A stretch of DNA of 64,000 bases from Patescibacteria group bacterium (GCA_041665145.1 JBAYJK010000002.1:168339-232338), one strand, 5' to 3'. Positions 27,688 through 52,210 are shown, counted from the first letter of the stretch. Notes: generated by a model from the sequence alone, not told the origin. A program made the numbers and translations.

Positions 27688-27806
27688 ATTCAAATCCACA
27701 AATGACAAATATCAAATCAAATCCAAATCTATTAAGTTCAAATAAAGTTATTTGATATTTGAATTTTGAGTTTGATTTGTAGATTTGTCATTTGTCATTT
27801 GTCATT
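27688..27806. repeat. CAAAT/ATTTG-word palindromic element (family B, full copy)
   Basis: The left arm caaatccacaaatgacaaatatcaaatcaaatccaaatc mirrors the right arm gatttgtagatttgtcatttgtcatttg. Confidence 0.7.
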
Positions 27807-27822
27807 ACGATATAATTCCCTC

Positions 27823-28773
27823 ATGGAATATGCATACATCTCTTCCGGTTCATTCGGTGCTCAAGTTCTGCAGCACCTTGATCCAAAACCATCGCTCGTA
27901 ATTACGGGAATAGACAAACTCGGCGGCCGGGGTATGAAAGAATTGATTCAGACTCCCGTCAAAAAACTATGCACAGAGCTACATATACCTTACAAAGAAG
28001 TTGCAGATAAGATTGAACTTGCCAAAATTGTGAGAAGCGACGACGAGCGACAGCGAGAAGGAGCGACGAAACAATTGGCTAAGAGGCTCCTGTTGTTATG
28101 TGATTTCGGAGTAATAGTACCTTCAGAACTTTTGCATTTAAATGAATATGGCATTTGGAATATCCACCCCTCTCTCCTACCCAAACATCGTGGAACTACA
28201 CCTATACAGACTGCACTCTTGAATGGAGAAAAAGTCACGGGCGTGACAATTATGCAGATCGATGAAAAAATCGATCATGGCCCAATTATTGCACAAGAGC
28301 GGACAGAAATTGACATCAACGATACAAACGTAACGCTGCAAGCAAAGCTGGCAGAAGTTGGAGCGACATTAGTTAATAGTAAATGGTTGAGAGTTAATGG
28401 TAGTTCAGAGACGTTGAGACCTTTAGACATTCAGACTCTTAGACCACAAGATCATTCTCAAGCAACATTCACTAAAAAATTGACTAAAGAAGACGGTTTT
28501 GTCCCCCTGAATGAGCTTGCCCCATACCTTGAGCCTATACTCAAGAAATATAATTTAATGCATTTATTACCAACTGGATCCGAGATTCGCGATGCGCGAT
28601 ACGCAGATGTTTTGCATAATAAGATCCGTGCTTTCACTCCCTGGCCAGGTGTATGGACGAAACTAGCCGATGAATCGGTTTTGAAAATTGTTTCGAGCAC
28701 CTTTGAAGAAAGTGAAAAGATATTTGTCATAACGGAAGTCGAAAGAAACGGAAAGAAATATGGATGTAAGTAG
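27823..28773 (+). CDS. fmt: methionyl-tRNA formyltransferase
   Basis: IWNIHPSLLPKHRGTTPIQTALLNGEKVTGVTIMQIDEKIDHGPIIAQ is present. TATAAT (27811..27816) lies 6 nt before the ATG. Confidence 0.85.
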   Translation: MEYAYISSGSFGAQVLQHLDPKPSLVITGIDKLGGRGMKELIQTPVKKLCTELHIPYKEVADKIELAKIVRSDDERQREGATKQLAKRLLLLCDFGVIVPSELLHLNEYGIWNIHPSLLPKHRGTTPIQTALLNGEKVTGVTIMQIDEKIDHGPIIAQERTEIDINDTNVTLQAKLAEVGATLVNSKWLRVNGSSETLRPLDIQTLRPQDHSQATFTKKLTKEDGFVPLNELAPYLEPILKKYNLMHLLPTGSEIRDARYADVLHNKIRAFTPWPGVWTKLADESVLKIVSSTFEESEKIFVITEVERNGKKYGCK

Positions 28774-28823
28774 AATTCGCAAAATATTATCTTTAGAAAA
28801 GCGAAATGGTATAATTCTTAATT

Positions 28824-30017
28824 ATGCACATTGTACAAATTTGCCAGCGTTTTTTTTACGGCCGTGGACAAGAAGTGCATGTATATAATCTTTCCAACGA
28901 GCTTGCTAAACAAGGTCACAAAATAACCATATTCACTTCTGAAGTTGATGTGTCAACGGTTTTTAGAAATTCACTCAAATTGCACCCGAATATCGAAATT
29001 AAAACAAGTAAAGCCGTAACTATAAAATACCCTTCAAATCAGCTTTTGTTTCCAAACCTGGGAGATGAGTTAATGCAAATGGGTGATATAGACATTATCC
29101 ATGCTCATGGAGCAATGTGTTATTCCTCATTAGTAGGTCTTACTATTGCAAAAACAAAAAAGATACCTTTTGTTTTTACGCCCCACTTTCATCCATGGAG
29201 ATTTTTTGAACAACGACCATACCGCTATACACGAGAAGCCTACGAAACCGCCTTTACTGTTCCAATTATGCGCGAGGCAACAGCAGTGATTGCTGTATCT
29301 CCGTTTGAAAAACATTACCTCACAACTCGACGCAAACTTCCTAAGGAAAAAATACATGTAATCGCGAATGGTATTAATACATTATATTACCCATCTATAG
29401 TTTCAAGACGTGCAGTCCGAACGAAAAATAATATTCCCGAAAACAAGAAATATATTATTGGTTTTGGAGCAAAGACAGACGCACGTAAAGGAATCGATAG
29501 GATATTGAGGGTGTTCGATGTAGTTAATAGGAAAATGCCTGAGACACATCTGATTATAGCGGGCTGGATTTATAAAAAAAACGCCGACCACATTGCGAAA
29601 CTCATGGATACGCTTGCCTGTAGGAAGAATGTAACAACATTAGGTTACGTTTCTGAGGATGATAAAGTGGCTCTTATTAAAATGAGCGATGTCTTGATTT
29701 CCCCGACAAGTTATGAAGCTTTCGGAATCGTACTTGGTGAAGCAATGACCTTGAAGGTACCTGTGGTTGTAACAAGGATTGGGGGGACCCCTTTTATTGT
29801 TAAACACCGTAAAACTGGTTTTACCGTCGGTCAGTATAATAGTATCAATAAGTTTGCTAAATACACTTTAGAATTATTAAGGAATGATAAACTACGCGAG
29901 CGTATGGGAGGTGAAGGAAAAAGAATAGTGCGAACATATTTTACGTGGGAGAAAATCGCAAAACAGATAAATAAATTGTACAAAACAGTAAATACTGAAA
30001 ATAAAGCTATAAAATGA
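28824..30017 (+). CDS. glycosyltransferase family 4 (GT-B)
   Basis: The C-terminal motif is YEAFGIVLGEAMTLKVPVVVTRIGGTPFIV. Confidence 0.8.
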   Translation: MHIVQICQRFFYGRGQEVHVYNLSNELAKQGHKITIFTSEVDVSTVFRNSLKLHPNIEIKTSKAVTIKYPSNQLLFPNLGDELMQMGDIDIIHAHGAMCYSSLVGLTIAKTKKIPFVFTPHFHPWRFFEQRPYRYTREAYETAFTVPIMREATAVIAVSPFEKHYLTTRRKLPKEKIHVIANGINTLYYPSIVSRRAVRTKNNIPENKKYIIGFGAKTDARKGIDRILRVFDVVNRKMPETHLIIAGWIYKKNADHIAKLMDTLACRKNVTTLGYVSEDDKVALIKMSDVLISPTSYEAFGIVLGEAMTLKVPVVVTRIGGTPFIVKHRKTGFTVGQYNSINKFAKYTLELLRNDKLRERMGGEGKRIVRTYFTWEKIAKQINKLYKTVNTENKAIK

Positions 30018-31165
30018 AAAAAGTAATCGTTCAAGGCAGACCATTTGCACTTGAGCCTTGTGGGATTAAAAATTTTTCGACTCATTTTATTGCTACTCTC
30101 GCTGAACAGCTCCCCCAGTTACTTTTTGAAATAATAGTTCCCGGAAAAATCGACAAGATATATGGGGAGAATCAACCCAAAAATATACTGTTTACGGAGC
30201 TGCCACAAACGGAAACAAAACCAGATTACCTGTCCGCTTTGTTATGGGAGAATACACAAACCTCCGAATATGTGGCAAAGCAAAGTAAAGACGACTTGCT
30301 GTTTTATTTATCACCGTATAACTGTTTACCCTTCCCGAAACTTGGGATACCCGAATTTGTCGTGTTACATGACGTTGATCTGTGGATAGACCGTGGTGTT
30401 GAATGGCCAATAGAAAGAAGGTTTGGGTATGCTTTAAAAAAACAAAGTATATACAATGCAGATCACATATTCACAGTCTCTAGTTTTTCCAAAACAGAAA
30501 TAACCTCTTTTTTTAAGCTCCCTGAAAAAAAAGTAATTGCAATTTATGAAGATATAAATGATTTCTATGACAAACCTTCAGATAGTGTGAGTAAGACGCT
30601 ATTGAAATTTCAACTTGAAGCAAAGAACTATTTTCTTTACGTTGGTGCGTTTGAACCAAGAAAAAATGTCGAATTGCTGTTTAGGGCATATCACGAGTAT
30701 ATGAACAAGAACACACCAGCACAGAAGAAAAAACTTGTGATTGTCGGATCACACAATGAGAGAACGAAAGCTCTATCCGAGAATACTAGCTTAGTGTCAG
30801 AAGCGACATTTATAAGCGCTCAGTCTCTTGCTGATATTAAAGATCTGTATTTGGGTGCTTTTGCATTCATTTATCCCAGTAAATATGAAGGGTTTGGATT
30901 GCAAATCCTCGAGGCACAGGCAACAAGAACTGCACTTATAGCATCTAACATACCAACTTTTAAAGAAATTGCTGGGAAAGGCGCACTGTTCTTTGACCCT
31001 ACAGAGCCTTCCGGTCTATTAAACACGATGACGGAGTTAGAAAATAATAGTGAGTTGAGAGAAAATATTATTAAAGAAGGACTCCTAAATAGAAACAAAT
31101 ATAGTTGGAGGAAAACTTCTGAGATTTTTATTAAATCAATCAAAGATTATGTTAGTCTTGCCTAA
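30014..31165 (+). CDS. glycosyltransferase family 4 (GT-B)
   Basis: YEGFGLQILEAQATRTALIASNIPTFKEI is present. The start overlaps the previous stop. Confidence 0.8.
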   Translation: MKKVIVQGRPFALEPCGIKNFSTHFIATLAEQLPQLLFEIIVPGKIDKIYGENQPKNILFTELPQTETKPDYLSALLWENTQTSEYVAKQSKDDLLFYLSPYNCLPFPKLGIPEFVVLHDVDLWIDRGVEWPIERRFGYALKKQSIYNADHIFTVSSFSKTEITSFFKLPEKKVIAIYEDINDFYDKPSDSVSKTLLKFQLEAKNYFLYVGAFEPRKNVELLFRAYHEYMNKNTPAQKKKLVIVGSHNERTKALSENTSLVSEATFISAQSLADIKDLYLGAFAFIYPSKYEGFGLQILEAQATRTALIASNIPTFKEIAGKGALFFDPTEPSGLLNTMTELENNSELRENIIKEGLLNRNKYSWRKTSEIFIKSIKDYVSLA

Positions 31166-31168
31166 CTT

Positions 31169-32335
31169 ATGAAAATAGCCATCGTTTCTTCTAATGAACA
31201 GCTAACCCCTCCCCCCGATAATGTGATAGTTGCTTCAATGAATGTCTCAACATTCCAAACCGTAGGACTCTCTGCATTGGGACATGAAGTGTATGCGGTC
31301 GTTGGGAAAGGCTCCACTATCAAGACTCACCGCGTTGAGTCTTTTTCTAAACCAGTTTTTGAAACTATAGATAAGGAGGTCTGGCAATCGACAGGCAATA
31401 GTAGGTTGATGTATCAAATAATTGTCCCTTTCGAAATCGATCTTCATTTGACACTGCTGGACTTTTTGAAAACACACCAAGTCGATCTCGTTCACTTCCA
31501 CACAATTAAGCCATACATAGGGCTGCCCTTTGCCATGCGTGTCAATGTCCCTTGCTTTTTTACATTACACAGTCCAGGGACAGCAATTGAAGTTGATACA
31601 ATGAAAGCTTTTAACAGCAAAAACATCCATTACATTTCGATTAGTAAAAATCAGCAAAAATCATATGGCGGACTACAGTTTGCAGGTACAGTCCATAACG
31701 GACTTGATCTTAAAGCTTCAACCTTTAATGTAAAAGGTGGCAATAACCTTGTAATAGGTGCACGAATACTTCCAGAGAAAGGTATATATGAAGGAATCTT
31801 GGCCGCCGGGAAAACTGGAAAAAACCTTGACATTGCTGGTGAAGTCAGATCTAGCAGCAATCAATACTACATACAAAAAATAGAGCCTCTACTTAAACAG
31901 TATAAAAATATACAGTTTCTGCAATTTATGAATCATAATCTTATGAATTCTTTTTTTGGCACCGGAAAAGCTTCTCTCGTACCAATCCAGTGGGAAGAAC
32001 CATTTGGTCTTGTAATGATTGAGTCTATGGCAACAGGAACGCCGGTAATCGCTTTCGCAAGAGGGTCTGTTCCTGAGGTTATAAAAGACGGTGAGACAGG
32101 TTTTATTGTAAATTCTTCTGATGATGACATCCGAGGAAACTGGGTTATTAAAAAAACAGGTATTGATGGGCTCTGCGAGGCAATTGAAAAAGTATATACA
32201 ATGTCTGAGGATAGGTACCAAGACATGAGAAGAGCTTGCAGAAATCATGTGGAACAAAATTTCACAGTTGAAAAAATGGCAAAAGGGTATGAAAAAATAT
32301 ACCAAGAAGTACTCTCAGAATCCTTAACTATTTAG
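31169..32335 (+). CDS. glycosyltransferase family 4 (GT-B)
   Basis: WEEPFGLVMIESMATGTPVIAFARGSVPEVIKDGETGFIV is present. Confidence 0.8.
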   Translation: MKIAIVSSNEQLTPPPDNVIVASMNVSTFQTVGLSALGHEVYAVVGKGSTIKTHRVESFSKPVFETIDKEVWQSTGNSRLMYQIIVPFEIDLHLTLLDFLKTHQVDLVHFHTIKPYIGLPFAMRVNVPCFFTLHSPGTAIEVDTMKAFNSKNIHYISISKNQQKSYGGLQFAGTVHNGLDLKASTFNVKGGNNLVIGARILPEKGIYEGILAAGKTGKNLDIAGEVRSSSNQYYIQKIEPLLKQYKNIQFLQFMNHNLMNSFFGTGKASLVPIQWEEPFGLVMIESMATGTPVIAFARGSVPEVIKDGETGFIVNSSDDDIRGNWVIKKTGIDGLCEAIEKVYTMSEDRYQDMRRACRNHVEQNFTVEKMAKGYEKIYQEVLSESLTI

Positions 32336-33166: not shown

Positions 33167-33180
33167 ATCTTCAATATACC

Positions 33181-33306
33181 AAAGTTTTCAGTTTACAGTT
33201 CTCAGTTTTTAAAGAGTTCTTAAGAAACAGCTCTTAAACTGTATTTGTTTAGTACTTAAGAACTATTAGTTTCTTTAAGAACTGAAAAATGAGAACCGAG
33301 AACTCG
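33181..33306. repeat. family A palindromic intergenic element (GTTCTTAAG / CAGTTCTCA words), copy 1
   Basis: About 85% identical by eye to 43641..43756. Both share the 17-mer core TTTAGTACTTAAGAACT. Confidence 0.75.
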
Positions 33307-34206: not shown

Positions 34207-34288
34207 ACAAACTACTTTACCACATATCGCACCTATTTGCTCGTAGCTTATAGTAGATTTTATGAATTAATATTGGTATAATTCCCAG

Positions 34289-35638
34289 ATGCATTCTAGA
34301 AGAGAAGTTCTTGGAATTGATGGATTAAAAGGAGCTATTCGCTCTATGATGTCAGCTAATGCTGCTACTGACGAGGACGTTAGGAGAGATCGCGCATTTG
34401 AACTGGTTGCAGAAGGTGGGCTTGGGGTTGTTATTGCTGCACTTGCGCTTACCGGAGCTCAAGATAAATATAGGGCAGTCGCAGTTACTGCAGAGCGGGC
34501 ACTACCCGATTCAAGAGTTTATACCGAAGGCCAAAGTCAGTCTGACACATTAAGAAAACTTACCACATCCCTTTCGCAACGTATAGCCAGAGTTTCTTCT
34601 GTTTGGGACAGATTCAGTAGAACTGAAATCGTATTGGAACTGCAAAAAACCGGCGAAGTTTGCACAGGCACCGGAAGCAACAGTAGTTGTACTGACACAT
34701 ATGGATGGGTACCTACTCCAAAAACTGTCTGGCATGAACCACCAGAACTTATAGCACTTGGCATTGACCGCCACAACCTTTACAATTGGCAAAGATTACT
34801 TACGAATGTAGGTAGCGGCATAGGAACTCTGAACGCTCAATCTCGTGGCTCATTTGACTTATCCCGCGGAGGTGCTGTTCTCGACTTTCGAGAGCAAGCG
34901 CTCGATATGGGTATCAGTAATATTTTAAGTGTTTTCCTCTATGGAGGTGCGGGTGCCGCGATGATTAAATACGAGGAATGGAGTCAACGGTTGCTGCGCG
35001 CCATCGGTCGAGATGATTTGTCTGGAATTGACCCCCGGTACGCTATAAAACGAAGGTCGGTGCTCAAATTAGGTGCGGTAGGTGCAGGAGCACTTCTTGT
35101 CAGACAAATACAAAAAGCATTGGGGGCGGGTAACCAAAATATACTCCAAGATGTCCAAGGTCATGCCGCACGTGTTCTGGCAGATATTCAAGCAAATCCC
35201 GAAAAATCGTTAGCTGAGTACATGACCATGCATGTTCATGAGCTTGCTGCACTGTTGGGAATGATCAATAGAATAGCCGAACAAGCAATAAATCTTCCCC
35301 GAGTCACCGAGGATTTTGATTACGGACAGTGGAAAAATGTAATAAGACCGGAAGTTGAAAACCTGTTTTACGACAGTCAGGCAGCTATTGCCCGTTTTAT
35401 AGAGTTTTTCAATTACGACCACAGGGTAAGATCCTATACAGTTCCAACTCAATTATTGCAACTTGCGGGAAGCACTGCCGGGACAAATAGAATCTTGAGT
35501 TATGCAAATACGAGGCGTGGAGAGCTTACCATTTCTCACCCTCTGCACGCCCTCTTGCTTGCCGGAGGATTTGCCGCGATTGCTGCTGCTGGGGAAAAAG
35601 TAATCTTTCCTGCAATTGACCATGCTGTTGGGCAATAA
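34289..35638 (+). CDS. hypothetical membrane protein (449 aa)
   Basis: Long ORF with several hydrophobic segments. TGGTATAAT ends 6 nt before the ATG. Confidence 0.55.
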   Translation: MHSRREVLGIDGLKGAIRSMMSANAATDEDVRRDRAFELVAEGGLGVVIAALALTGAQDKYRAVAVTAERALPDSRVYTEGQSQSDTLRKLTTSLSQRIARVSSVWDRFSRTEIVLELQKTGEVCTGTGSNSSCTDTYGWVPTPKTVWHEPPELIALGIDRHNLYNWQRLLTNVGSGIGTLNAQSRGSFDLSRGGAVLDFREQALDMGISNILSVFLYGGAGAAMIKYEEWSQRLLRAIGRDDLSGIDPRYAIKRRSVLKLGAVGAGALLVRQIQKALGAGNQNILQDVQGHAARVLADIQANPEKSLAEYMTMHVHELAALLGMINRIAEQAINLPRVTEDFDYGQWKNVIRPEVENLFYDSQAAIARFIEFFNYDHRVRSYTVPTQLLQLAGSTAGTNRILSYANTRRGELTISHPLHALLLAGGFAAIAAAGEKVIFPAIDHAVGQ

Positions 35639-35641: not shown

Positions 35642-36502
35642 TCACTGTGGAATTTCTTCGAGAATATCCTTATTTCTCTTGTCCGGTCCTACTCCATCAA
35701 ACCCCGGAACCTCGAGAATAAGCGGAATATTCTTCAAAAGAGGTTGGTGAACAATATTTTTAAATCCTTCAATACCAATTTTCCCTTCCCCGATATTCTC
35801 ATGGCGGTCATGCTTGCTTCCCAGATCAGTTTTTGAGTCATTTACATGCAAACACACCAGATGTTCAATCCCTATTTTTTCATCAAATTCCTTAAGCCAC
35901 TTCCCAAAAATCTCTTTGTTACCCGTATCAACTCCTGTCGCAAATAGATGCTGAGTATCAATGCAAAACTTGACGCGAGATCCGAGATGCGGGACGCGTG
36001 ACGATATTTCGTTATGTAGGTATACGAGCTCACCGAGCGTTGCACCCACACGTCCTCCACCCCCGGCCGCATTTTCGATGATTAGCTTTTGGTTCGATGG
36101 TGTTTTCTCAAGAATTTTTAGAAAAGATGTCACTAATTGTTCTTTCACATCATCGAATGTTCTTTCTTTATAACTGCCGATATGGAACACTGTTCCTGTG
36201 GAATTTATTTTTTCACCAAACTGCATGTACCCGATTAACGACTCGATAGACGCGTGAACGAGTGACGGTTTTTCTGATGCAAGATTCAAAAGGTAAATCG
36301 CATGAAACACCAAAAACTGCATATTGTTTTCTTTGTACAGTTTATTGAATCTATCTATTTCTTCCGGGCTGACAGACGGTTTTGAATAAGATTGCGGAGC
36401 GCTAGCAAATATCTGAATACCGTTAAACTCACGTTCGACTGCCCGTTCTACAGCCTTACTTATTCCTCCTGCGATTGAAACATGTCCGCCGATTATTCTC
36501 AT
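35642..36502 (-). CDS. nfo: endonuclease IV (deoxyribonuclease IV)
   Basis: MRIIGGHVSIAGG, CIDTQHLFATG and LHVNDSK...GSKHDRHENIGEGKIG are present. Confidence 0.85.
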   Translation of the reverse strand: MRIIGGHVSIAGGISKAVERAVEREFNGIQIFASAPQSYSKPSVSPEEIDRFNKLYKENNMQFLVFHAIYLLNLASEKPSLVHASIESLIGYMQFGEKINSTGTVFHIGSYKERTFDDVKEQLVTSFLKILEKTPSNQKLIIENAAGGGGRVGATLGELVYLHNEISSRVPHLGSRVKFCIDTQHLFATGVDTGNKEIFGKWLKEFDEKIGIEHLVCLHVNDSKTDLGSKHDRHENIGEGKIGIEGFKNIVHQPLLKNIPLILEVPGFDGVGPDKRNKDILEEIPQ

Positions 36503-36530
36503 ATAATTTTCAGTTTTTAGTTTCTAGTTT

Positions 36531-37064
36531 TCAATCAATTTTCAATTCAGAGAAAGCTTTTTCGAACACCGTAGCTAATACTTTTCTTTCTTCCTCTGTA
36601 AAATTCTGTAACACATATGCTTCTCCTGGTATTCTGTTTTCCGAATTTCTGTTATCCACTCCTATGCGCACTCTCCAGAAATCTTTTGTTCCCAATAATT
36701 CCTCAACCGAATTAACTCCATTATGCACTTTTGGCCCTTTGCCAAGGTTGATTTTATATTCGCCGAGTTTCAAATCGAGATCGTCGTGGACCACCAGCAA
36801 ATCTCGAATATCGAAGTTCGAATATCGAATATATGAAGACACTGCCTTCCCCGATTCGTTCATAAACGTTTGAGGTTTAAGTAGAACTAATTTCTTTCCC
36901 TCGAATTCGATTTCAATAATCTCACTTTGAAACTTACCACTTTCCTTTTTACTTTCTACCTTAGACTTTCGACTTATGTAATCCAAAAACAGAAATCCCA
37001 CATTATGTCGCGTATTTGCGTATTTTTCTCCCGGGTTTCCAAGACCTGTTATTAGCTTTGTCAT
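36531..37064 (-). CDS. pth: peptidyl-tRNA hydrolase
   Basis: LITGLGNPGEKYANTRHNVGF and LLVVHDDLDL are present. The start overlaps the upstream stop (ATGA). Confidence 0.85.
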   Translation of the reverse strand: MTKLITGLGNPGEKYANTRHNVGFLFLDYISRKSKVESKKESGKFQSEIIEIEFEGKKLVLLKPQTFMNESGKAVSSYIRYSNFDIRDLLVVHDDLDLKLGEYKINLGKGPKVHNGVNSVEELLGTKDFWRVRIGVDNRNSENRIPGEAYVLQNFTEEERKVLATVFEKAFSELKID

Positions 37065-37918
37065 TTAAATTTTGAGCTTGATTTGTGTATTTGTAGATTT
37101 GAATTTTGAATTTCTGCCGAGAATACCTCATCCGGGTTCAGTCTGAACAGTCCTTCATTCAATCGTTTTTGATCGAGATAGTGCGCAATAAACCCGACTG
37201 ATCGGGAAAGAACAAAAAAGGCGTTAAAAAATTCGGCTTCAATTAATTGCTGAATTGCTAAATTGTCAAACTGCTCCTCGGAAGTTAATAAATCAAGAAG
37301 AATTGCAGCAATAGTTCCGTCCACATTTAATATCAAATTCGGCTTTTTTGCGGACGTAATCTTTTCAACTTGCTGCGCATATTTCAGATACTCACCGCCT
37401 ACCCCCTTAACTGATGCTTGCAGCATTTTTACTCGAGGGTCCGGCATGTCTATCCGATATTTTTTATGTCCGATACCCGGAATGTATCTTTTTTGATGCG
37501 CGAACTCCTCGATAAGAGCAGCAGGCTCTTTTTGATCAGAGACAGCTGTATAAAATACCTGTGCAGAAGCGTTAATTGCGCCACCAAACCGGGGTCCGAT
37601 AGTTAATAGCCCTGAGACCAGTGACGACACCAAATCTTTGCCCGCACGGGCGGAAATAATGGTATTAACCGCACCGGATTGGTAGGGACCATGATCGACA
37701 AGTAGTTTAAGAACTAAATCGATGAAATTCTCAGTTTTTAAAGATTTGAGCTCTCGCCCTAACCATAAAGATCCGACAATCGCCGCAAAGGATTGCTTCT
37801 CTGCGACCTCCGTCAGTTTTTTTCCTAAAATAACCACTTCCTCGTCAACCTCCCCAGAAATAGTTGAGGTGAAAAGAGTGTGTTTTCGCTCTTTCAGATC
37901 ATTTATTTTTTTATCCAT
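37061..37918 (-). CDS. citrate-synthase-like domain protein (citryl-CoA lyase / ATP-citrate lyase C-terminal module)
   Basis: LVDHGPYQSGAVNTIISARAGKDLVSSLVSGLLTIGPRFGGA and IPGIGHKKYRIDMPDPRV resemble the ACLY C-terminal / Ccl pattern. Confidence 0.65.
   Translation of the reverse strand: MDKKINDLKERKHTLFTSTISGEVDEEVVILGKKLTEVAEKQSFAAIVGSLWLGRELKSLKTENFIDLVLKLLVDHGPYQSGAVNTIISARAGKDLVSSLVSGLLTIGPRFGGAINASAQVFYTAVSDQKEPAALIEEFAHQKRYIPGIGHKKYRIDMPDPRVKMLQASVKGVGGEYLKYAQQVEKITSAKKPNLILNVDGTIAAILLDLLTSEEQFDNLAIQQLIEAEFFNAFFVLSRSVGFIAHYLDQKRLNEGLFRLNPDEVFSAEIQNSNLQIHKSSSKFK
37064..37113. repeat. family B element (half copy) overlapping a gene junction
   Basis: aaattttgagcttgatttgtgtatttgtagatttgaattttgaatttctg encodes the C-terminal tail EIQNSNLQIHKSSSKFK of 37061..37918. 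Confidence 0.65.
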
Positions 37919-37954
37919 AAAAGTATTTTACCTCATATTCCATATTCTTATATT

Positions 37955-38938
37955 CTATATTCTCAACTCTCTCAGCACTTTCCCTAATTCCCCAAAACTT
38001 TCTGTCACGATAACTCCCGCTTTTTTCAAGGCCTCCCGTTTTTGACGCGCCTTTTCACCAACTGTTTCGGCTTTTGCCTTTGCATGTCCGAATTGAGGGC
38101 TCTCGGAAAACAAATCTGCAACAGTTCCTGCAATATGAGCGATCACCTTTTTCGGATTTCGTGCTTCGTGCTTCGAGTTTTTGTTCAGAATGTCTATCAA
38201 CTCATATTCATCCGTGCCTCCAAGCTCACCATAATAAACAATGGTTTTGGTCTTTGGGTCTTCAAGAGCCAAAGCAAACGCGTTTTTGGGTGTTAGCAAG
38301 GGAAACCTATCTCCGCCAAATGAGAGCGAAAACGACAAATGGTGGCCACTCTGCAACACAACCGAAATGAGCTCATTTGTCATACCTCCTGATGCAGACA
38401 TGACCGCGACATCTCCTTGTTCTAATATTCCAGATGTAACAATCTGCTCGGGCGTAATACCACCGATCGGACCAAGTTTTAAAATTCCGGGAAGAACCAA
38501 GCCCACACTTGCGGGACCGATTAACAGCCTTCCATTTTTTACAACGGTATTATAGAGCTCCAAACTATGCAATTCAGGAACTCCTTCGGCAAAAAAGACT
38601 CCGCCAGTAAGATTCGTAAAAAGCCTATTCATAACGATCCCGGTAGATAATGCTCGGCGGCCGGAAGAGAGATTAATAAACCAATCAATTAAGTGTGCGT
38701 TCTCAACTCGTTCGAATGTATGATACTGTGAAATAAGTACTTCTTTTTTACCCCAGAAGTACTTTAGATGCGCATCGGAATTTCCGATTATTCCGAATAT
38801 GCTCGGTTTGCTTTTCCCCGCCAAATAGTCGAAGTCCAATATTGATTGGACTATTTGCGGATGATTCCCCACCACAAGAATATTATTCCGCCCATTTCTT
38901 ATTGCTTCTATCTTTGAGATTTGAATTTGATTTGTCAT
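37955..38938 (-). CDS. succinyl-CoA-synthetase-alpha-like / ATP-citrate lyase CoA-ligase module
   Basis: CoA-binding and ligase_CoA pattern: MSASGGMTNELISV and the phosphohistidine-loop-like SPQFGHAKAKAE. Confidence 0.65.
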   Translation of the reverse strand: MTNQIQISKIEAIRNGRNNILVVGNHPQIVQSILDFDYLAGKSKPSIFGIIGNSDAHLKYFWGKKEVLISQYHTFERVENAHLIDWFINLSSGRRALSTGIVMNRLFTNLTGGVFFAEGVPELHSLELYNTVVKNGRLLIGPASVGLVLPGILKLGPIGGITPEQIVTSGILEQGDVAVMSASGGMTNELISVVLQSGHHLSFSLSFGGDRFPLLTPKNAFALALEDPKTKTIVYYGELGGTDEYELIDILNKNSKHEARNPKKVIAHIAGTVADLFSESPQFGHAKAKAETVGEKARQKREALKKAGVIVTESFGELGKVLRELRI

Positions 38939-38963
38939 TTGTTATTTGAGTTTTGAATTTCTG
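38914..38963. repeat. family B element overlapping a gene junction
   Basis: tttgagatttgaatttgatttgtcatttgttatttgagttttgaatttctgac encodes MTNQIQISKIE of one gene and SEIQNSNNK* of the next. Confidence 0.65.
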
Positions 38964-40161
38964 ACAATGCCTTTTTAACTATCTCTGTAAGCACCATTTC
39001 CGGTCCGGCAACGTGTCCGAGTATTTCGTTATCGGATAAGAATTTATGCATCAGGGCTAGCCCTTTGTCTTGGTTTGGACCACCTCGCCGCACGTATACC
39101 TGGATATGCTGCTTTTGCAAAAGGGCGATTTCTTCTTTTAGTGCTTGGATAATTCCTTTGAAAGTCTTTGTAACGTCCGTGAAATTTGCTACACCTCCGG
39201 CTATAACAAGAACTTTCTTCTCTGCTTTTGAATCGAGCATAGTTTTGATAATGGTCTTTGTATACAAATACGTATCTTCCGTTGAAGGACTTCCACTATA
39301 TTCACCATAGTTTCCCAACTCTTTTCCATACCCAAGATCTGCAACCTCGTCGGCAAGAACCAAACTTGCCCCACCGCCCGACAGCAGCATCCAGATGCTT
39401 CCGTTCGGATTAATAACCTTGAGTTTAAGGGAAGCCGGGGTTGTTGCATCAAGCTGACGGACCTGTTTCTCCGCAGGGTGTTCTGACAGCTCATCTACAG
39501 CGCTTGACGATCCGTAAGGGCGAGACCCTGCATCGTCTGCGAGAACGGCACAATCTAGGAGCTGGAAGTTGGTCGTTTGAAGTTTGGAGACTGTAGCCTG
39601 CAATTCGACGAGCGGATTGATTTCGAGAAATGAGAAATGATATTTGTCCATTATCTGACAGAGCTTTATTACAAAATCGTTTCGCCTCTCCTCGTCAGTT
39701 TTCCTCGTCGTTTCTCCCGATTTTGTTTGTTTGTTTCGAGATTCGAGATTCGAGATTCGAGATTCGTTTATGCTCTCCCAATTGTCTTCCACCTCAATTC
39801 CTCCCTTCTCCGAATACAAAACCCGCATCCCTTCACGCACACGTTCTATCGACAAATAATGTTCTTCTTCCGGTTTGTGAGTAACTAATTCCTCGATAAG
39901 AAATTGGGTATACCCCTGTTTTGATTTGTCTTGTATAAACTGAACACATTCATCCGGAGTAGCGTTAATTTTAACCAAACCTTGTTTTCCCCTTTTCTTA
40001 ATTCCCTGATCTACCTTCACTACCAGTTTCTTTCCCTCAAATAAAGAGATTATTTCTTGCGTTGTTATCGATATTGTTGCCGGTAAACCCAGCCAGGTGA
40101 GACGCAATTCTTTGGAGAGTATGTTTTTTGCCGAAAATTCGCTTATTTTAATCCGTGCCAT
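38935..40161 (-). CDS. ATP-grasp / citrate-binding subunit (ATP-citrate lyase beta-like or citryl-CoA synthetase large subunit-like)
   Basis: The N-terminus MARIKISEFSAKNIL resembles ACLY/SucC. LGNYGEYSGSPSTEDTYLYTKTIIKTM matches ACLY [23 protein letters not shown]. Confidence 0.65.
   Translation of the reverse strand: MARIKISEFSAKNILSKELRLTWLGLPATISITTQEIISLFEGKKLVVKVDQGIKKRGKQGLVKINATPDECVQFIQDKSKQGYTQFLIEELVTHKPEEEHYLSIERVREGMRVLYSEKGGIEVEDNWESINESRISNLESRNKQTKSGETTRKTDEERRNDFVIKLCQIMDKYHFSFLEINPLVELQATVSKLQTTNFQLLDCAVLADDAGSRPYGSSSAVDELSEHPAEKQVRQLDATTPASLKLKVINPNGSIWMLLSGGGASLVLADEVADLGYGKELGNYGEYSGSPSTEDTYLYTKTIIKTMLDSKAEKKVLVIAGGVANFTDVTKTFKGIIQALKEEIALLQKQHIQVYVRRGGPNQDKGLALMHKFLSDNEILGHVAGPEMVLTEIVKKALSEIQNSNNK
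39737..39764 (+). repeat. perfect heptamer tandem array (CGAGATT)x4 inside the CDS 38935..40161
   Basis: Read directly from the sequence. On the minus strand it encodes ESRISNLESR within an apparent insert. Confidence 0.9.
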
Positions 40162-40171
40162 TGTGATAATC

Positions 40172-40206
40172 AGTAGCTAGTAGTTAGTAGATAGTAGATA
40201 GTATAT
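40172..40206 (+). repeat. degenerate heptamer array (AGTAGNT)x5 in the leader of the ACL-like operon
   Basis: The units are agtagct agtagtt agtagat agtagat agtatat. The heptamer is the same as in 19684..19711. An extended -10, TGGTATTAT, lies at 40205..40213 on the minus strand. Confidence 0.8.
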
Positions 40207-40222
40207 AATACCATAAGAAATT

Positions 40223-41695: not shown

Positions 41696-42271
41696 ATGAC
41701 GGGGCGCACACATGACCTTACTGCATTCACTTTTCTTATCACCGCCGCCTACGTCACTATTCCGCACATAACGCTTGCTACAACCGTCACAGCGCTTGCA
41801 GCAGCGATGCTGGGAGGCATTGCACCCGACCTAGATCAACCGACGGCACGACTATGGAACAGATTGCCGGCGGGTTCAATTATCGGCCGCATTATTCACC
41901 CGCTTTTGGGAAGCCACCGACTAATCTCACATTCACTTTTTGGAATGTCTCTCATCGGACTGGGACTTTTGTTTTTACTACCACAACTTGGTACGGTTCT
42001 TTTGGTTGATATGAATGTTGTATGGTGGGCGTTCATGCTGGGATATTTATCGCATCTTGTTGTCGACACCATTACTAAAGAAGGCGTTCCGTGGCTATTC
42101 CCCATCCCTATCCGATTAGGAATTCCACCGTTCAAATTCTTACGATTAACAACAGGTGGCATGATCGAAAAAGGAATTATCTTCCCCGGATTACTTATTT
42201 TTGACGGATATTTAGTCTACCAGCATTACCACCGATTTGTTGTTTTGTTTACACAGCACGTGCTCAAATAA
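41696..42271 (+). CDS. membrane-bound metal-dependent hydrolase (YdjM/DUF457 family)
   Basis: MTGRTHDLTAF..., SHSLFG and SHLVVDTITKEGVPWLFP are present, with multiple TM helices. Confidence 0.6.
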   Translation: MTGRTHDLTAFTFLITAAYVTIPHITLATTVTALAAAMLGGIAPDLDQPTARLWNRLPAGSIIGRIIHPLLGSHRLISHSLFGMSLIGLGLLFLLPQLGTVLLVDMNVVWWAFMLGYLSHLVVDTITKEGVPWLFPIPIRLGIPPFKFLRLTTGGMIEKGIIFPGLLIFDGYLVYQHYHRFVVLFTQHVLK

Positions 42272-42330
42272 AGTTTTCAGTTCATAGTTCTCAGTTTTTA
42301 AAGAGTTTTCGGTTCTTAAGTATTAAATAC
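42271..42330. repeat. family A element, half copy
   Basis: aagttttcagttcatagttctcagtttttaaagagttttcggttcttaagtattaaatac matches the left arm of 33181..33306. Confidence 0.65.
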
Positions 42331-42873: not shown

Positions 42874-43641
42874 ATGTACTTAGAATCTGAGGCGCAAACA
42901 TATTTACAAAAACTCGGTTTGACTCAGGAAGAGGCAGATCTGTACTTGTCTTTGGTGAGAAACGGTCCGTCTAACCTACTGAAAGCTTCCCGTTACTCGG
43001 GAGTTGAAAGAACAAAACTGTATCGAATGATCGGCTCGTTGAAAGACAGAGGAATCATTGAAGAAGTTCTTGCCCACAAGAAACATGTTTTAAAAGCAGC
43101 CTCGGCTGACCGTTTGCTATCGATCATTCAATCACAGCAGTCTGAACTGACCACTGCACAATCTGTCTTCCCCAACTTTAAACACTACCTGCAATCCATC
43201 CAGGCGCCCACACAAGGTACTGAAGTCTTATATTATGAAGGGATTGATGGTATACGTCAGATTTTATGGAACACTCTGCAGGCACGGCCGATGTTGCGGT
43301 GTTATGTCGATACGGTTTTTAACCGAATAGTCGGTCAAAAATTTCTTGAAAGTTGGGGTGAGGAAGTTGTTGCTTTGAATATGGAAATTCGCCAATTTAA
43401 TAGTCCGAATTTTTTGAAAAGCCACAAAGGGGTGCAACCGGTGAATTTAGGTAAGAAATTTAGCATGAAAGATGCCCCAAAAGAAGTTGCCGTAACACAC
43501 GGAATGGATATATACAATGACACAGTTGCGATTTACTATTGGGAAAATAACGAGATTCTGGGAGTTGAGATAAAAAACCCAGCAATTGCCCGAATGCAAG
43601 AATCTATCTTTGACTTCTTTTGGAACAAGATAAAGAGTTAG
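42874..43641 (+). CDS. TrmB-family transcriptional regulator
   Basis: The N-terminal winged HTH is YLQKLGLTQEEADLYLSLVRNGPSNLLKASRYSGVERTKLYRMIGSLKDRGIIEE. Confidence 0.7.
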   Translation: MYLESEAQTYLQKLGLTQEEADLYLSLVRNGPSNLLKASRYSGVERTKLYRMIGSLKDRGIIEEVLAHKKHVLKAASADRLLSIIQSQQSELTTAQSVFPNFKHYLQSIQAPTQGTEVLYYEGIDGIRQILWNTLQARPMLRCYVDTVFNRIVGQKFLESWGEEVVALNMEIRQFNSPNFLKSHKGVQPVNLGKKFSMKDAPKEVAVTHGMDIYNDTVAIYYWENNEILGVEIKNPAIARMQESIFDFFWNKIKS

Positions 43642-43756
43642 TTCTTAGTTCACAGTTCTCAAAGAGTTCTTAAGAGACAGTTCTTAAACAGCATCTGTTT
43701 AGTACTTAAGAACTAGTAGTTTCTTTAAGAACTGAGAAATGAGAATTAAGAACTGC
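43641..43756. repeat. family A palindromic intergenic element, copy 3
   Basis: See 33181..33306. Confidence 0.75.
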
Positions 43757-43775
43757 TATTGTGTATACTGATCTT

Positions 43776-46129: not shown

Positions 46130-46227
46130 TCATGAACCACGAAGGGTTCATGATCCTGTACTCTACGTAGTACAGGATCTTGGATTTTCACCAAGTTCCC
46201 CGAAAAACATACCCCCCATGGGTATGT
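46130..46227. other. four consecutive stem-loops between divergent genes
   Basis: TCATGAACC/GGTTCATGA lies at 46130..46153. GATCCTGTACT/AGTACAGGATC lies at 46152..46179. CTTGG/CCAAG lies at 46179..46195. ACATACCC/GGGTATGT lies at 46207..46227. Confidence 0.55.
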
Positions 46228-46361
46228 GGCCTTCCCGTCCTATCAATCTAAACTATGACAGTGGCCTGTTTCACTCTCGTACGGGGTATTATAACTACTT
46301 TCAAAAAAAATGCAACGATATTTATAACCCCTCTGTTGCTTTTTTTTTGAAAATATATAGA

Positions 46362-47078: not shown

Positions 47079-47079
47079 A

Positions 47080-48497: not shown

Positions 48498-48749
48498 GTT
48501 TTTGCAAAACTATAAGGGTCTTCCTATTAAACGTTGGCTTCGTATTATATACAAAATTTGTACAACTACATTGTACCAAATATATATAAGTTTTGGACTT
48601 TCTTGATTGCATGAAATCGTTTTTTATTGAAATAATATCATATTCTAGATTCATGTTATAAGTATATCTATAAGATAGATTTATCAAACTTTATTCACTC
48701 GCCTTCTTTATTGAAAACTGTAAACTGTAAACTGAAAACTAATTATAGG

Positions 48750-49757
48750 TTATACCTTCCCTGCAGCCTTACGATACAACTCGAAATTTTCCGCTATCAG
48801 ACCCAAACCCCGGATGACACAAAGCAATGGGTCTTCCGCCAAGTAACACGGAATATTCAGTTCGTCGGAAAGAAATTTATCCAGGTTATGCAGCAATGAT
48901 GTACCTCCCGACAATAAAGCTCCTTTTTCCACGATGTCTGCAGAAAGTTCAGGAGGTATGTTTTCCAATACTTTTTTTGCCGTATACATAATGCTTCTGA
49001 GTGGTTTTTGAATACTTTCACACAGTTCCCGCTCGGTGAGATCGATACTGCGTGGCAGACCTGTTCGCAAATCCCTTCCTTTTACCGGAAAGACGACATC
49101 CTCCTTAGCTTCTTTCAGATAGGCGTTTCCGTGCGTTATCTTCATTTCTTCAGCCGTACGCTCGCCGATAATGAGTGAGTGCTTCTTTTTGAGGTAGTTA
49201 ATCATAGCTTCTTCAATCTTATTTCCTGCAACACGCTCACTTTCATAAGAAACCAGTTCGCCGAGCGAGATAACTGCGGCTTCAGTTGTACCTCCTCCAA
49301 TATTGATAATCATATTACCCGATGCCTCGGCTATGGATATCTTAGCTCCAATTGCCGCCGCGATAGGCTCTTCAATAAGATAGGTGTTCTGAGCCCCGGC
49401 TGCATAACAGGCGTTTGCAACAGCCCGTTTTTCAACCTGTGTCGAACCTCCAGGAATCGAGATTACTATATCCGGCTTGAACAGAAAGTTACCTAACGCC
49501 TTGCTCAAAAAATACCGTATCATGGCACGGGTAACAACATACTCCGCAATAACGCCATCTTTCATCGGACGAGACGCCACAATGGTTCCGGGGGTACGAC
49601 CGAGCATTTCTTTCGCTTCCTCTCCTACGGCAACCACCCGCTTATCTAGAAGTGAGTACGCAACAACTGTCGGCTCGGAAACAACGACTCCCTTATGCTC
49701 AACATACACCAATGTATTTGCGGTCCCCAAATCAATTCCAACCCGTTTATTGAACAT
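48750..49757 (-). CDS. mreB: rod-shape-determining actin homologue MreB
   Basis: VGIDLGTANTLVYV and the MreB pattern throughout. The start is ATG 49757, with TATACT 6 nt upstream. Confidence 0.9.
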   Translation of the reverse strand: MFNKRVGIDLGTANTLVYVEHKGVVVSEPTVVAYSLLDKRVVAVGEEAKEMLGRTPGTIVASRPMKDGVIAEYVVTRAMIRYFLSKALGNFLFKPDIVISIPGGSTQVEKRAVANACYAAGAQNTYLIEEPIAAAIGAKISIAEASGNMIINIGGGTTEAAVISLGELVSYESERVAGNKIEEAMINYLKKKHSLIIGERTAEEMKITHGNAYLKEAKEDVVFPVKGRDLRTGLPRSIDLTERELCESIQKPLRSIMYTAKKVLENIPPELSADIVEKGALLSGGTSLLHNLDKFLSDELNIPCYLAEDPLLCVIRGLGLIAENFELYRKAAGKV

Positions 49758-49847
49758 ATAGGTAGTATAGTACAAACGAAAAAAAACAAAAAGTACAGGG
49801 CACAGAACTATTACTTAATAGTATTAAAATATATCAATATAGATCAT

Positions 49848-49980
49848 AAAGTTCTCAGTTCTTATTTTTCAGTTCTCAAAGAGTTCTCGGTTCTTAAGTA
49901 CTAAACAAACACATCTTCGTTTGAGAACTGCCACTTAAAAACTCTTTAAAAACTAAGAACTGTTACTTAAGAACTAGTAG
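49848..49980. repeat. family A palindromic intergenic element, copy 4 (inverted orientation)
   Basis: It contains ggttcttaagtactaaac, the reverse complement of the family core. Confidence 0.7.
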
Positions 49981-49999
49981 TAAGTGTTATAATATGACC

Positions 50000-51307
50000 A
50001 TGATTGTATTAAAGCGAACTGCGATGGGTATTCTCGTTTGGGCCATCATTGGAGTCATCACACTTCTTATTATCATGTTTGCCCGAGGATATCGATTTAA
50101 CCTGGATAGTAAATCTGTAAAAAGCCGCGGTATCCTTGTCGCCAACTCCCTTCCGAACAGCTCGCAAATTTACATTAATGATAAGTTTTCAAGTCTCACT
50201 CCCGACAACATATATCTTGCTCCCGGAGAATACAGCGTCCGACTGCAAAAAGAAGGCTATATTCCGTGGGAAAAGCACTATTCTATCAATGCCGAGGTTG
50301 TTTCTCGAACAGACGCCCTCTTGTTCTCAACAAATCCATCATTGAGCCCATTAACCCGGCAGGGTGTTATTAATCCCCTCCTGTCTCCCAGCAGGGAAAG
50401 CATCGTATATTTGTCGCTCCCCGACGAAAGCGATGTGCAAAGTCAGGAAAATGGAGGTATTTTTATGGCAAAAATAAGCTCAAAGACGCTTAGTTTTTTC
50501 AGACAACGTTCGATTCTTGTCCCTTATAGCAAGCTTCCTTTTGGTTTTGTTCCTGAAAAAACCAAATTCATTTTCTCCCCGGATGAAAAGAACATCCTTG
50601 TTTTTCTGTATGACGACACAGACGCACTTACCGCCGCATTGCTTATTTCGACAGGAAACCCGGGAGCAGGTTTTCTTGATGCGACAATCTCTTATGAGTC
50701 TCTGATTGAAAATTGGGAAACTCAACAAACCGAGATACAGCAACAGATTTTTGATACGCTTGGTAAGAAAGTACGCATGATTTTCGAGAATAACACCTAT
50801 CTGATAGACATCTCCCCAGCAAAGAACAAATTGCTCTACTTTGCTATGAAGCCCGCTATTCTTCCATATACCATAAACCCACCACTTATCGGTTCGGTTC
50901 CGACAGCCCAATCACGGACGCTCAAGTCAGGCGAATATTATGTGTATGACATAAAAGAAGATAAAAATTATGTAATTGATATATACTCCTCGCCGGAACG
51001 ACTCAAAACACTAAGCACGCTTGAGAAAGTTTTGGAAAATAAGGAAGTCTCGGTTGCAAATTGGCTCGATAGATATCTTGCCTTCAGTAACATATTCTGG
51101 TACAGCGATTCACGTCACGTTGTATACATGAACGGGGAAAGCATAAATATTGTTGAGTACGACAGCCAAAACAACACACTTATATACTCAGGTCCTTTTG
51201 AAACGACATTCAGCGCAGTTTCGTCGGATGGCGATCTTATTGTGTTAACCAACATTAACCCCAAGAAAAACAAGCTTCCCAACCTCTATACTGTCAGCAT
51301 CAAATAG
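50000..51307 (+). CDS. membrane-anchored PEGA-domain protein
   Basis: A TM helix is followed by a PEGA-like GILVANSLPNSSQIYINDKFSSLTPDNIYLAPGEYSVRLQKEGYIPWEK segment. The second ATG is preferred because TATAAT 49988..49993 abuts the first. Confidence 0.6.
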   Translation: MIVLKRTAMGILVWAIIGVITLLIIMFARGYRFNLDSKSVKSRGILVANSLPNSSQIYINDKFSSLTPDNIYLAPGEYSVRLQKEGYIPWEKHYSINAEVVSRTDALLFSTNPSLSPLTRQGVINPLLSPSRESIVYLSLPDESDVQSQENGGIFMAKISSKTLSFFRQRSILVPYSKLPFGFVPEKTKFIFSPDEKNILVFLYDDTDALTAALLISTGNPGAGFLDATISYESLIENWETQQTEIQQQIFDTLGKKVRMIFENNTYLIDISPAKNKLLYFAMKPAILPYTINPPLIGSVPTAQSRTLKSGEYYVYDIKEDKNYVIDIYSSPERLKTLSTLEKVLENKEVSVANWLDRYLAFSNIFWYSDSRHVVYMNGESINIVEYDSQNNTLIYSGPFETTFSAVSSDGDLIVLTNINPKKNKLPNLYTVSIK

Positions 51308-51349
51308 TCTGTCGTCACGGTGCCGACAAATTGCTACAATTAATACCAT

Positions 51350-52066
51350 ATGACTGTCGATCGGGATTTCTGGCGTATTCTTGGGTTTAGAACACTTGGT
51401 AATTTTTTTATCTTAACCAGCTTTCTGATGCTCGGAAAAACTTTTGGGCCGGTCATTTTTCAGGAAGCAGTCTACTCCATCCGGCAAGTTCGCGGCGTAA
51501 AAACAGTAGTGGCCACAACTTCCAAACTACCCGCTTCACAGCGAGGCGAGCCAGCTACAAACCCTGCTCCCAACGCTTTTCTTGCATTGATAGATAGGTT
51601 CAGTAGCGCGGAAGAAATACTTGCCCCTCCAGATCCCAACAACTCAATAATTATTCCTAAAATTGCTGCTGTCAGTAAGATCGTAGCGAATGTTGATAGC
51701 GCCAATTATGATGAATACATCGGATCGCTGAAACAAGGCGTCGCTCACGCGAGAGGAACGGCATTCCCCGGAGACGGTGGACACATTTACCTATTTGCAC
51801 ACTCCACAGACAGCATATTTAACGTCGGAGTGTATAATGCTGTTTTTTACTTGCTCTATAAGTTAGATGTAAATGATGAAATCGATTTGTTCTACCAAGG
51901 CAGAAAGTATGTTTATAAAGTTGTCGATAAGAAAACTGTTGATCCAACCGACGTACATTACATGACCCGGCAGTCGAATAAAGATTTCCTCACGTTGCAA
52001 ACATGTTGGCCACCGGGAACAACATTACAGCGATTACTTGTCTTTGCAGTTCCCGTGGTAGAATAG
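51350..52066 (+). CDS. sortase-family transpeptidase
   Basis: An N-terminal TM is present. The catalytic His context is GHIYLFAHS, followed by LTLQTCWP (TLxTC) and a downstream Arg (QRLLVFA). Confidence 0.7.
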   Translation: MTVDRDFWRILGFRTLGNFFILTSFLMLGKTFGPVIFQEAVYSIRQVRGVKTVVATTSKLPASQRGEPATNPAPNAFLALIDRFSSAEEILAPPDPNNSIIIPKIAAVSKIVANVDSANYDEYIGSLKQGVAHARGTAFPGDGGHIYLFAHSTDSIFNVGVYNAVFYLLYKLDVNDEIDLFYQGRKYVYKVVDKKTVDPTDVHYMTRQSNKDFLTLQTCWPPGTTLQRLLVFAVPVVE

Positions 52067-52074
52067 CATGTATT

Positions 52075-52146
52075 GCTTCCGTAGTTCAACGGATAGAACG
52101 AGGGTTTCCTAAACCCTAAATCCCAGTTCAATTCTGGGCGGGAGCA
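52075..52146 (+). tRNA. tRNA-Arg (anticodon CCT)
   Basis: Hand-folded: acceptor GCTTCCG/CGGGAGC, D stem GTTC/GAAC, anticodon stem AGGGT/ACCCT, loop TTCCTAA, T stem CCCAG/CTGGG with TTCAATT. 72 nt. Confidence 0.85.
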
Positions 52147-52155
52147 CATTTCGGG

Positions 52156-52210
52156 AAAATTCAAAATTCAAATATACAAATCCACAAACCAAGCTCAAAT
52201 AACAAATATT
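52156..52210. repeat. family B element, inverted orientation
   Basis: Its reverse complement, tatttgagcttggtttgtggatttgtatatttgaattttgaatttt, matches 37064..37113. Confidence 0.65.

Follow-up and report, generated by a model that had tools for sequence, protein, structure and literature searches.

Why should one and the same short DNA element lie on several gene junctions of a single operon and, at the same time, encode the ends of the proteins that meet there? The question is raised by an ACL-like operon in a 64-kb stretch of a Patescibacteria genome (JBAYJK010000002.1, positions 168339-232338), referred to here as the window; the setting of the operon is Microgenomates-like. The element, family B, consists of AT-rich arms of ~50-60 nt that are built from heptamers, with GACAAAT, TTCAAAT and similar units. 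A further ~10 kb of the same genome was examined together with the window (~74 kb in total). We suggest that family B is probably one family of a widespread class of elements that resemble the intervening sequences (IVS) of rRNA genes and are associated with S23p genes, and that it is present here both as a hairpin without an open reading frame (ORF) and as solo arms that settled on pre-existing gene boundaries.

In the window, family B is found as exactly five arms at four places, i.e., one hairpin and three single arms. The full ORF-less hairpin is at 27688..27806, with a CAAAT-rich left arm and an ATTTG-rich right arm. Solo arms A (37064..37113) and B (38914..38963) are on the minus strand and lie in the operon. 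Solo arm C (52156..52210, plus strand) is non-coding and is located directly after a tRNA-Arg and directly before a double hairpin that resembles the NTS/SRM repeats (SRM, Ssn-related motif). An alignment of the five arms (A5, mean column identity 72%) was the basis of the family B profile. When the window was searched with this profile, the five arms were recovered at E-values from 5e-13 to 4e-9, and nothing else scored below E=6.9. The core pattern AAATTCAAAAYTCAAATN{2,3}CAAAT has three matches in the window against none in 100 shuffles, and a 17-mer with up to three mismatches allowed has 10 matches where 1.3 are expected. The four places are those listed in an earlier note on this DNA, whose coordinates are all correct. 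For arm B the copy is real, but only ~38921-38963 looks element-derived; codon 7 (ATC) of the gene that starts within the arm aligns with the ATG of its relatives. No second arm able to pair with any of the three solo arms was found nearby, so the long stem is confined to the hairpin. There are no further copies in the ~10 kb beyond the window, and no direct repeats are evident at the ends of the copies at the four window sites.

All operon genes named here are encoded on the minus strand. The AclB-like gene (38935..40161) has ATP-grasp and citrate-binding domains, as judged from Pfam and homologues. It is followed by a CoA-ligase gene (37955..38938, 327 aa), assigned by Pfam and corresponding to the N-terminal half of a fused AclA, and by a citrate-synthase-like gene of the citryl-CoA lyase type (37061..37918, 285 aa, Pfam), corresponding to the C-terminal half. 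In alignments, residues 350-606 of the fused 631-aa ACL chain 6hxi_B are matched by the 285-aa protein, and since it fits the C-terminal part of the fused ACL alpha chain, the two genes together correspond to a split AclA. Next come pth (36531..37064, Pfam) and an nfo-like gene of the AP endonuclease 2/xylose-isomerase-like TIM-barrel type (35642-36502, PF01261).

The translations agree with the earlier claim that the arms encode protein termini. The AclB-like protein ends in ...SEIQNSNNK*, the CoA-ligase protein begins with MTNQIQISKIE..., and the citrate-synthase-like protein ends in ...AEIQNSNLQIHKSSSKFK. Arm A provides the tail EIQNSNLQIHKSSSKFK of the latter together with its TGA, and abuts the ATG of pth. 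Arm B provides EIQNSNNK* of the AclB-like protein, the stop/start overlap, and MTNQIQ of the CoA-ligase protein, whose start codon lies inside the arm. Both copies straddle ATGA overlaps, at 38935-38938 and 37061-37064, as had been noted before. It was also correct to trace the peptide EIQNSN to a shared DNA element: in both proteins it comes from the same 18 nt, GAAATTCAAAA(Y)TCAAAT, read in the same frame. At the aclB/CoA-ligase junction both the TGA and the ATG are contributed by one GACAAAT unit, i.e., the ATGA is inside the element. The second codon of pth, ACA, is at the end of arm A, and the protein begins with MTKL, compared with MKL in relatives. The boundary between the two AclA halves (37919..37954) carries a different repeat family and not family B: a GAATATA heptamer array, then GAGG, then TAAAAT 7 nt before the ATG.

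Are the boundaries as young as the repeats on them? The order AclB-like, CoA-ligase, citrate-synthase-like, pth is kept in L001 (62% identity), which is the nearest of the relatives that have a long contig, and in two Roizmanbacteria (L003 and L004), in which nfo also follows the ACL genes and pth. All three lack family B, and the relatives' own junctions are a 13-nt spacer or ATGA overlaps. The protein ends are different. The citrate-synthase-like protein extends ~12 residues further at its C-terminus than its counterparts in L001 and L004 (alignment A4), and all of these residues lie past residue 265, the last position that aligns with solved ACLY/ACL structures. The CoA-ligase protein has six extra N-terminal residues (alignment A3), and the codon that matches the ATG of the relatives is ATC in the window. 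In the AclB-like protein 13 aa follow LTEIV, whereas the tails of 72 homologues have a median length of 8 (interquartile range 7-10). The peptide IQNSN is present in one other of the 72 (P0116), within the conserved core and not in the tail; as a shared tail it was rejected as a chance match. The comparison with homologues that the earlier note had proposed thus shows termini that are repeat-encoded and lineage-specific: they are absent from L001 and L004, and no homologue from an element-free genome was found with the same terminal peptides. The suggestion that a repeat had inserted at, or had created, gene boundaries holds in its first half only; the element does sit at boundaries, but these already exist in element-free relatives. 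Since these relatives share the gene split and lack the tails, the arms appear to have landed on existing boundaries and to have re-made their stop and start codons. The spacer between the AclA halves, 37919-37954, is ~90% identical to 10132-10180 of L001, with TAAAAT/TAGAAT variants, while the flanking proteins are 68-69% identical. This conserved spacer may contain an internal promoter or translation signal.

What kind of element could do this? A complete IVS-like element is present at 11293..11845 (minus strand) of the window. It contains an S23p/four-helix-bundle gene (11351-11704, PF05635; TIGR02436 with E 1e-20) between two arms of the AGTTTCT type, 11299-11325 and 11811-11837, which are 27 nt long, 89% complementary and paired in both the minimum free energy and the centroid folds. 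The element lies outside any rRNA gene. The array at the pth/nfo-like junction (36504-36526) and the right arm of this element are complementary at 87%.

An iterative hidden Markov model search of the fetched loci gave six more S23p ORFs, and 7 out of 7 have inverted heptamer arrays on their two sides, with a unit particular to each; L117, from Amesbacteria, has arms of family B type. An unbiased set was formed by 80 metagenome loci chosen by S23p similarity alone, 69 of which have both flanks. The query was a three-sequence alignment (A7), the seven-sequence alignment A6 being too divergent. Of these 69 loci, 56 carry an upstream period-7 array, 60 a downstream one and 51 both, while lags 5, 6, 8 and 9 give both-side arrays in 0, 5, 8 and 5 loci, respectively, and the counts in distal controls taken 500 nt further out are 3/44 and 2/44. 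In 60/69 loci the two flanks show inverse complementarity (z > 3). The arrays are ~45 nt long and ~22 nt from the ORF, with an A/C-rich upstream arm and a T/G-rich downstream arm. With the A5 profile itself, S23p ORFs with a directly adjacent match are found in L184 (E 5e-7), L204 (3e-6 on one side and 1e-4 on the other), L157, L173 and L117, and in L204 both arms surround the ORF in the expected orientations. The link between heptamer repeats and S23p is broader than we expected. S23p proteins are relatives of Avd from diversity-generating retroelements (PMC10053308), and in the 23S rRNA IVS of Coxiella three tandem GACAGAT units precede the S23p ORF and RNase III cuts the stem (PMC4990558). 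This Coxiella note excepted, a general association between S23p and inverted heptamers was not found in the searchable literature on heptamers, short tandemly repeated repetitive (STRR) sequences, candidate phyla radiation (CPR) repeats or S23p/TIGR02436.

Family B is not restricted to this genome. A search for the exact core in bacteria, with one genome per species, matched more than 116 stretches, with hosts among Microgenomates, Saccharibacteria, Parcubacteria, Desulfobacterales, Bacteroidales, Ignavibacteriales, Planctomycetota, Verrucomicrobiota and Nitrospirae. Immediately upstream of the core, AAAC is found in 51 of 114 matches, and AAAT is phased at -11, -18, -25 and -32. Lag-7 arrays are about three times as frequent at core loci as arrays with lags of 6, 8 or 9. 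Long hairpins with a T/G-rich partner arm are present at 27 of 109 core loci, and their loops and outer units are lineage-specific. About 20 matches lie inside ORFs, all in the stop-poor orientation and seven of them near ORF ends. The core also occurs as an N-terminal extension in L048 (MKNSKFKIQNSNFK...) and L116 (MNVKIQNSNGK...), and in a Luteolibacter locus (L079, ~494-517) a helicase-like ORF reads it in frame as ENSKFKSQISNKKK, flanked by GSGKTTQ and TQPRRIAA. Literature searches with the arm sequences gave no description of them. In viral contigs there are four matches among 2.9 million, so phages are no obvious vector.

Within the window, family B is one of several heptamer families. 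A lag scan detects 33 period-7 arrays compared with 2-4 in shuffles, while the other lags from 3 to 12 give 1-9, and Tandem Repeats Finder also reports many period-7 arrays. Although ~93% of the window is ORF, 19 of the 33 arrays touch intergenic DNA or gene ends, and further junction arrays are found in 9 kb beyond the window. The other families (AGTTCTC, GTAGATA, TTCGAGA, AAAGTAG) likewise occur both as full hairpins and as single arms. Family A (AGTTCTC/AGTTTTC), for example, has three ~125-nt hairpins that share 115 nt at 86% identity; the ORF-less hairpin at 33179..33305 (z = -4.4) has the architecture of the family B hairpin, and its sisters are at 43631-43758 and 49849-49975. Single arms of family A are at 42269-42327, 48703-48748 and 36500-36537, and most family A elements begin right after stop codons. 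A GTAGATA-type array (40165-40216) fills the gap between tRNA-Trp and the start of aclB, with its last unit, TGATTAT, 4 nt before the aclB ATG, where a -10 box would be expected.

The remaining 14 arrays are internal to genes, including pth (36795-36838, 36927-36978), nfo-like (35969-36006), fmt (28572-28608), aclB (39723-39776, 39558-39603) and the CoA-ligase gene (38145-38186). The arrays in these five genes are read in frame and yield peptides such as IRYSNFDIRD and NESRISNLESRN. L001 has four arrays, all at sites homologous to window arrays, and one of them has a different unit (GACCCGC vs GAAGCAC) at the same protein loop, which points to concerted evolution; in L002 and L004 no heptamer arrays were found. 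This suggests, on the sequences compared, old arrays that evolve in concert within the sub-lineage.

From these observations a mechanism can be proposed. The elements of the class would consist of two inverted arms of degenerate 7-nt units around either an S23p/Avd-like gene or a short loop; they would be mobile, and solo arms would derive from full elements. An arm could be tolerated in a reading frame because its sense strand is poor in stop codons (open in two of three frames). As there are few stop codons on the CAAAT strand and ATGA is contained in GACAAAT, the upstream frame runs into the arm until it ends at the TGA of the arm. In arm B the downstream gene starts at the ATG inside the arm, because the ancestral ATG position is now ATC. 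The outcome is short lineage-specific terminal peptides, presumably without function, and a preserved 4-nt stop/start overlap. The arms themselves would be selfish or neutral passengers at permissive sites, i.e., junctions, termini and variable loops, where they might evolve in concert by slippage or conversion after insertion. By analogy with the rRNA IVSs, full stems might be substrates of RNase III.

Several observations weigh against this proposal. The arrays in pth replace segments of equal length in E. coli Pth and add no residues, so that in-place conversion fits better there than simple insertion. No copy in the window has a target-site duplication or an empty-site polymorphism, and insertion is therefore read only from relatives at ~62% identity. 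Neighbour clustering revealed no gene family that recurs beside the 116 matches, only housekeeping genes and no transposase or nuclease, and there is no transposase, reverse transcriptase or nuclease among the 40 Pfam-scanned window genes. Some of the 116 pattern matches are chance occurrences in ordinary coding sequence, e.g., L051. The S23p test loci are AT-rich and come from a query of the CPR subfamily, and for generality beyond this subfamily the evidence consists of four loci and Coxiella. Finally, no S23p gene with family B arms is present in the ~74 kb of this genome.

Could the full hairpins instead have a role at the RNA level, as RNase III-type processing or stability sites in polycistronic transcripts, with the solo arms as decayed remnants? 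The hairpin at 27688..27806, described earlier as a full palindrome between divergent genes, bears out that description: 27691-27801 is predicted to fold into one long hairpin of -35.7 kcal/mol with z = -6.1. Long stems with such strongly negative z-scores fit a processing site, as does the presence of elements at junctions of all kinds. However, the other strand folds about equally (z = -4.9), as a DNA palindrome would, and the copies in the operon and after the tRNA are single arms that have no partner nearby and thus cannot form a stem. Rfam gave only three tRNAs, no rRNA and no family B match for the whole window at gathering thresholds, and for seven other loci at E<=1 only spurious matches to miRNA-like hairpins. 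Promoter-like and terminator-like sites near the hairpin and the operon are no more frequent than in shuffled sequence. We regard a role in RNA processing as unlikely.

The hairpin separates two genes with likely starts at ATG 27667 (minus strand) and ATG 27823 (plus strand), and TATAAT boxes lie at 27674-27679 (reverse complement) and 27811-27816, each 6 nt before its ATG; these two genes probably have leaderless starts. The loop is ~10 nt long, which leaves no room for an S23p ORF. Across the window, a TATAAT-like box precedes the ATG of many genes by 5-12 nt (e.g., 27811-27825, 34270-34291, 28805-28826, 49980-49996), a layout that suggests mostly leaderless transcripts, and ~7.5% of the genes have a Shine-Dalgarno-like motif.

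The rarity of Shine-Dalgarno sites could also mean that the arms are selected translation modules, in which an A-rich unstructured leader and the ATGA ensure re-initiation. The ATGA of the aclB/CoA-ligase junction is indeed inside the element, and the family B leaders are among the most A-rich of the window (0.53 and 0.57) and weakly folded (-3.8 and -1.2 kcal/mol; window mean -5.0, standard deviation 2.7). This folding is, however, within 1.4 standard deviations of the mean and not distinctive. The relatives couple the same genes by ATGA or 13-nt spacers without the element, or have other repeat families at the same junction, and family B is also found after a tRNA and between divergent promoters, where coupling is irrelevant. 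A selected role in translation is in our view distinctly improbable.

It is still harder to maintain that similar A-rich sequences arose by independent local slippage, with no shared element. Arrays that evolve in concert at fixed positions, such as the loop at which the window and L001 differ in unit, would be expected from slippage, and an earlier paper also remarks on an excess of heptameric repeats in bacteria (PMC4692102). However, 40 of 43 bases (93%) of arm A (37071-37113) are complementary to arm C (52157-52199), and the matching part takes in the non-periodic stretch CAAGCTCAAA. Other Microgenomates (L026, L111, L005, L085) show the unit variants in the same order, in 51 of 114 loci the conserved sequence reaches further than the searched pattern, and the profile E-values reach 5e-13. 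Independent slippage is thus largely refuted and very improbable.

The splitting of a once fused ACL gene by insertion of the element, which the earlier note had considered, is refuted for family B and has next to no probability: fused AclA chains exist (631 aa, 617 aa) and repeats lie on all three operon junctions, but the aclB/aclA boundary is general in prokaryotic two-subunit ACLs, L001, L003 and L004 share the split without family B, L004 has the AclA split without any heptamer arrays, and in the window this split carries the GAATATA array, and the idea that family B split any gene is therefore rejected.

We return to the reading of family B as IVS-like arms on old boundaries. The aclB junction carries other repeats in other genomes. 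In L125 a NTS/SRM-like double hairpin, GTCATTCCCG...CGGGAATGACA, gives the AclB tail VSFPTSIVGNLGIPGFPPARE; in L126 an ATTGC...GCAATGAC hairpin gives ...NGIASRRSQ; and in L127 AATTTTC heptamers give ...FTIFNFQAPNKY*. As judged from these tails, the aclB junction is a recurrent, general landing site for different repeats. Another terminus encoded by an arm is seen in L129, ~6.5 kb past the right end of the window, where the two inverted arms of a TAGTTGA-type hairpin (3724-3790, 3849-3885) lie on either side of a start codon; one of them is intergenic, and the following gene takes its first residues from the other.

Repeats that form double hairpins, with the pattern TGTCATCCCCG...CGGGGATCCAG ... 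CTGGATTCCC...GGGAATGACA, are located at 22401-22480 and 52213-52291 of the window and at 1808-1875 of L125. The two window copies are 86% and 76% identical to each other. They resemble the NTS/dRS3 'Ssn-related motif' of the GIY-YIG Ssn nucleases and show compensatory changes in the stems. The copy at 22401-22480 fills the first ~30 codons of an M24 aminopeptidase ORF, in which the Creatinase_N domain begins at residue 32.

For this streamlined genome of the Patescibacteria, the findings mean that gene ends are reshaped by small repeats, a GACAAAT unit providing both a stop and a start, and that disordered tails were added to enzymes of central metabolism while the operon remained unbroken. 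They also contain a warning for annotation: the EIQNSN... extensions, as well as the hairpin-derived tails of the relatives, are repeat read-through and not conserved protein features. More generally, the heptanucleotide excess, palindromic intergenic repeats and S23p/Avd-like genes, which are usually treated apart, are here joined. If the link is broad, it suggests where heptamer repeats come from, in a form that can be tested, and opens a way to the function of a very common protein family. It is possible, and we propose it only tentatively, that inverted heptamer arms and S23p genes form a single cross-phylum mobile or recombinogenic class, of which the rRNA IVSs are the best-known insertions and whose ORF-less forms colonise junctions, promoters and reading frames. 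If this is true, the class would explain much of the bacterial heptanucleotide excess, possibly also the cyanobacterial STRRs and the Geobacter elements, and its members would routinely rewrite stop codons, start codons and protein termini.

How does family B compare with known systems? Its general kind is known, i.e., gene-captured palindromic or heptamer repeats and IVS-like elements, while its form and context were not found described in the literature. Like miniature inverted-repeat transposable elements (MITE) and repetitive extragenic palindromes (REP/REPIN), it is non-autonomous, multi-copy, palindromic and mostly intergenic, and each genome has a variant of its own with a conserved loop, as in the Bacteroidales metagenome-assembled genome CSMAG_1948 with its ~15 near-identical copies. 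It differs from them in that the arms are heptamer arrays instead of a unique terminal inverted repeat, and no target-site duplication and no cognate transposase or RAYT were found. REP/RAYT systems combine a G+C-rich palindrome of 20-40 nt with a Y1 transposase, while no Y1 transposase was found in the window.

The hairpin repeats of the NTS/dRS3 type (SRM) go with Ssn GIY-YIG nucleases (PMC11893778) and are, like family B, small hairpin repeats found across phyla and clustering around genes. A literature search with GTCATTCCCG led to the same source (PMC11893778) and to the NTS/SRM identification, and a variant of the NTS/SRM core is present in the repeats at 52213-52291 and 22401-22480. No GIY-YIG gene was seen among the Pfam-scanned genes of the window. 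Unlike these repeats, family B does not have the ATTCCC-N8-GGGAAT core (CGTCATTCCCGCG...GCGGGAATC), is far longer and is AT-rich.

The STRRs of cyanobacteria, reportedly described by Mazel et al. in 1990 as short tandemly repeated repetitive heptamers, have the unit families CCCCAGT, TTGGTCA and CAACAGT. The likeness to STRR-type repeats lies in tandem 7-nt units that are dispersed over many loci, in several families, between and within genes. However, none of the cyanobacterial units is present in family B, and TTGGTCA-like units are found only in the right arms of some other loci. In Geobacter metallireducens, heptanucleotide elements likewise occur within and between genes (PMC2700814). Compared with both, units and hosts are different here, and the arrays are degenerate and arranged as inverted arms.

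The Rickettsia palindromic elements (RPE), said to have been reported by Ogata et al. in 2000, are by their description similar in being dispersed palindromic repeats that are read in frame and add a peptide without destroying the protein. They are ~100-150 bp long, contain no heptamers and are mostly internal insertions, whereas family B supplies mainly termini and stop/start codons.

Finally, the 23S rRNA IVSs with an S23p ORF in Leptospira and Coxiella have, as do the S23p elements described here, an inverted-repeat stem around a small four-helix-bundle ORF. The rRNA IVSs are inserted in helix 25 or 45 of the 23S rRNA, while family B is found in junctions of protein genes and after a tRNA, two of its copies being translated. 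Unlike the rRNA IVSs, the family B copies have no ORF and three of them are single arms. The unit itself provides a further likeness, as the tandem GACAGAT of the Coxiella IVS, present in variable number before the ORF, is to be compared with the GACAAAT of family B.

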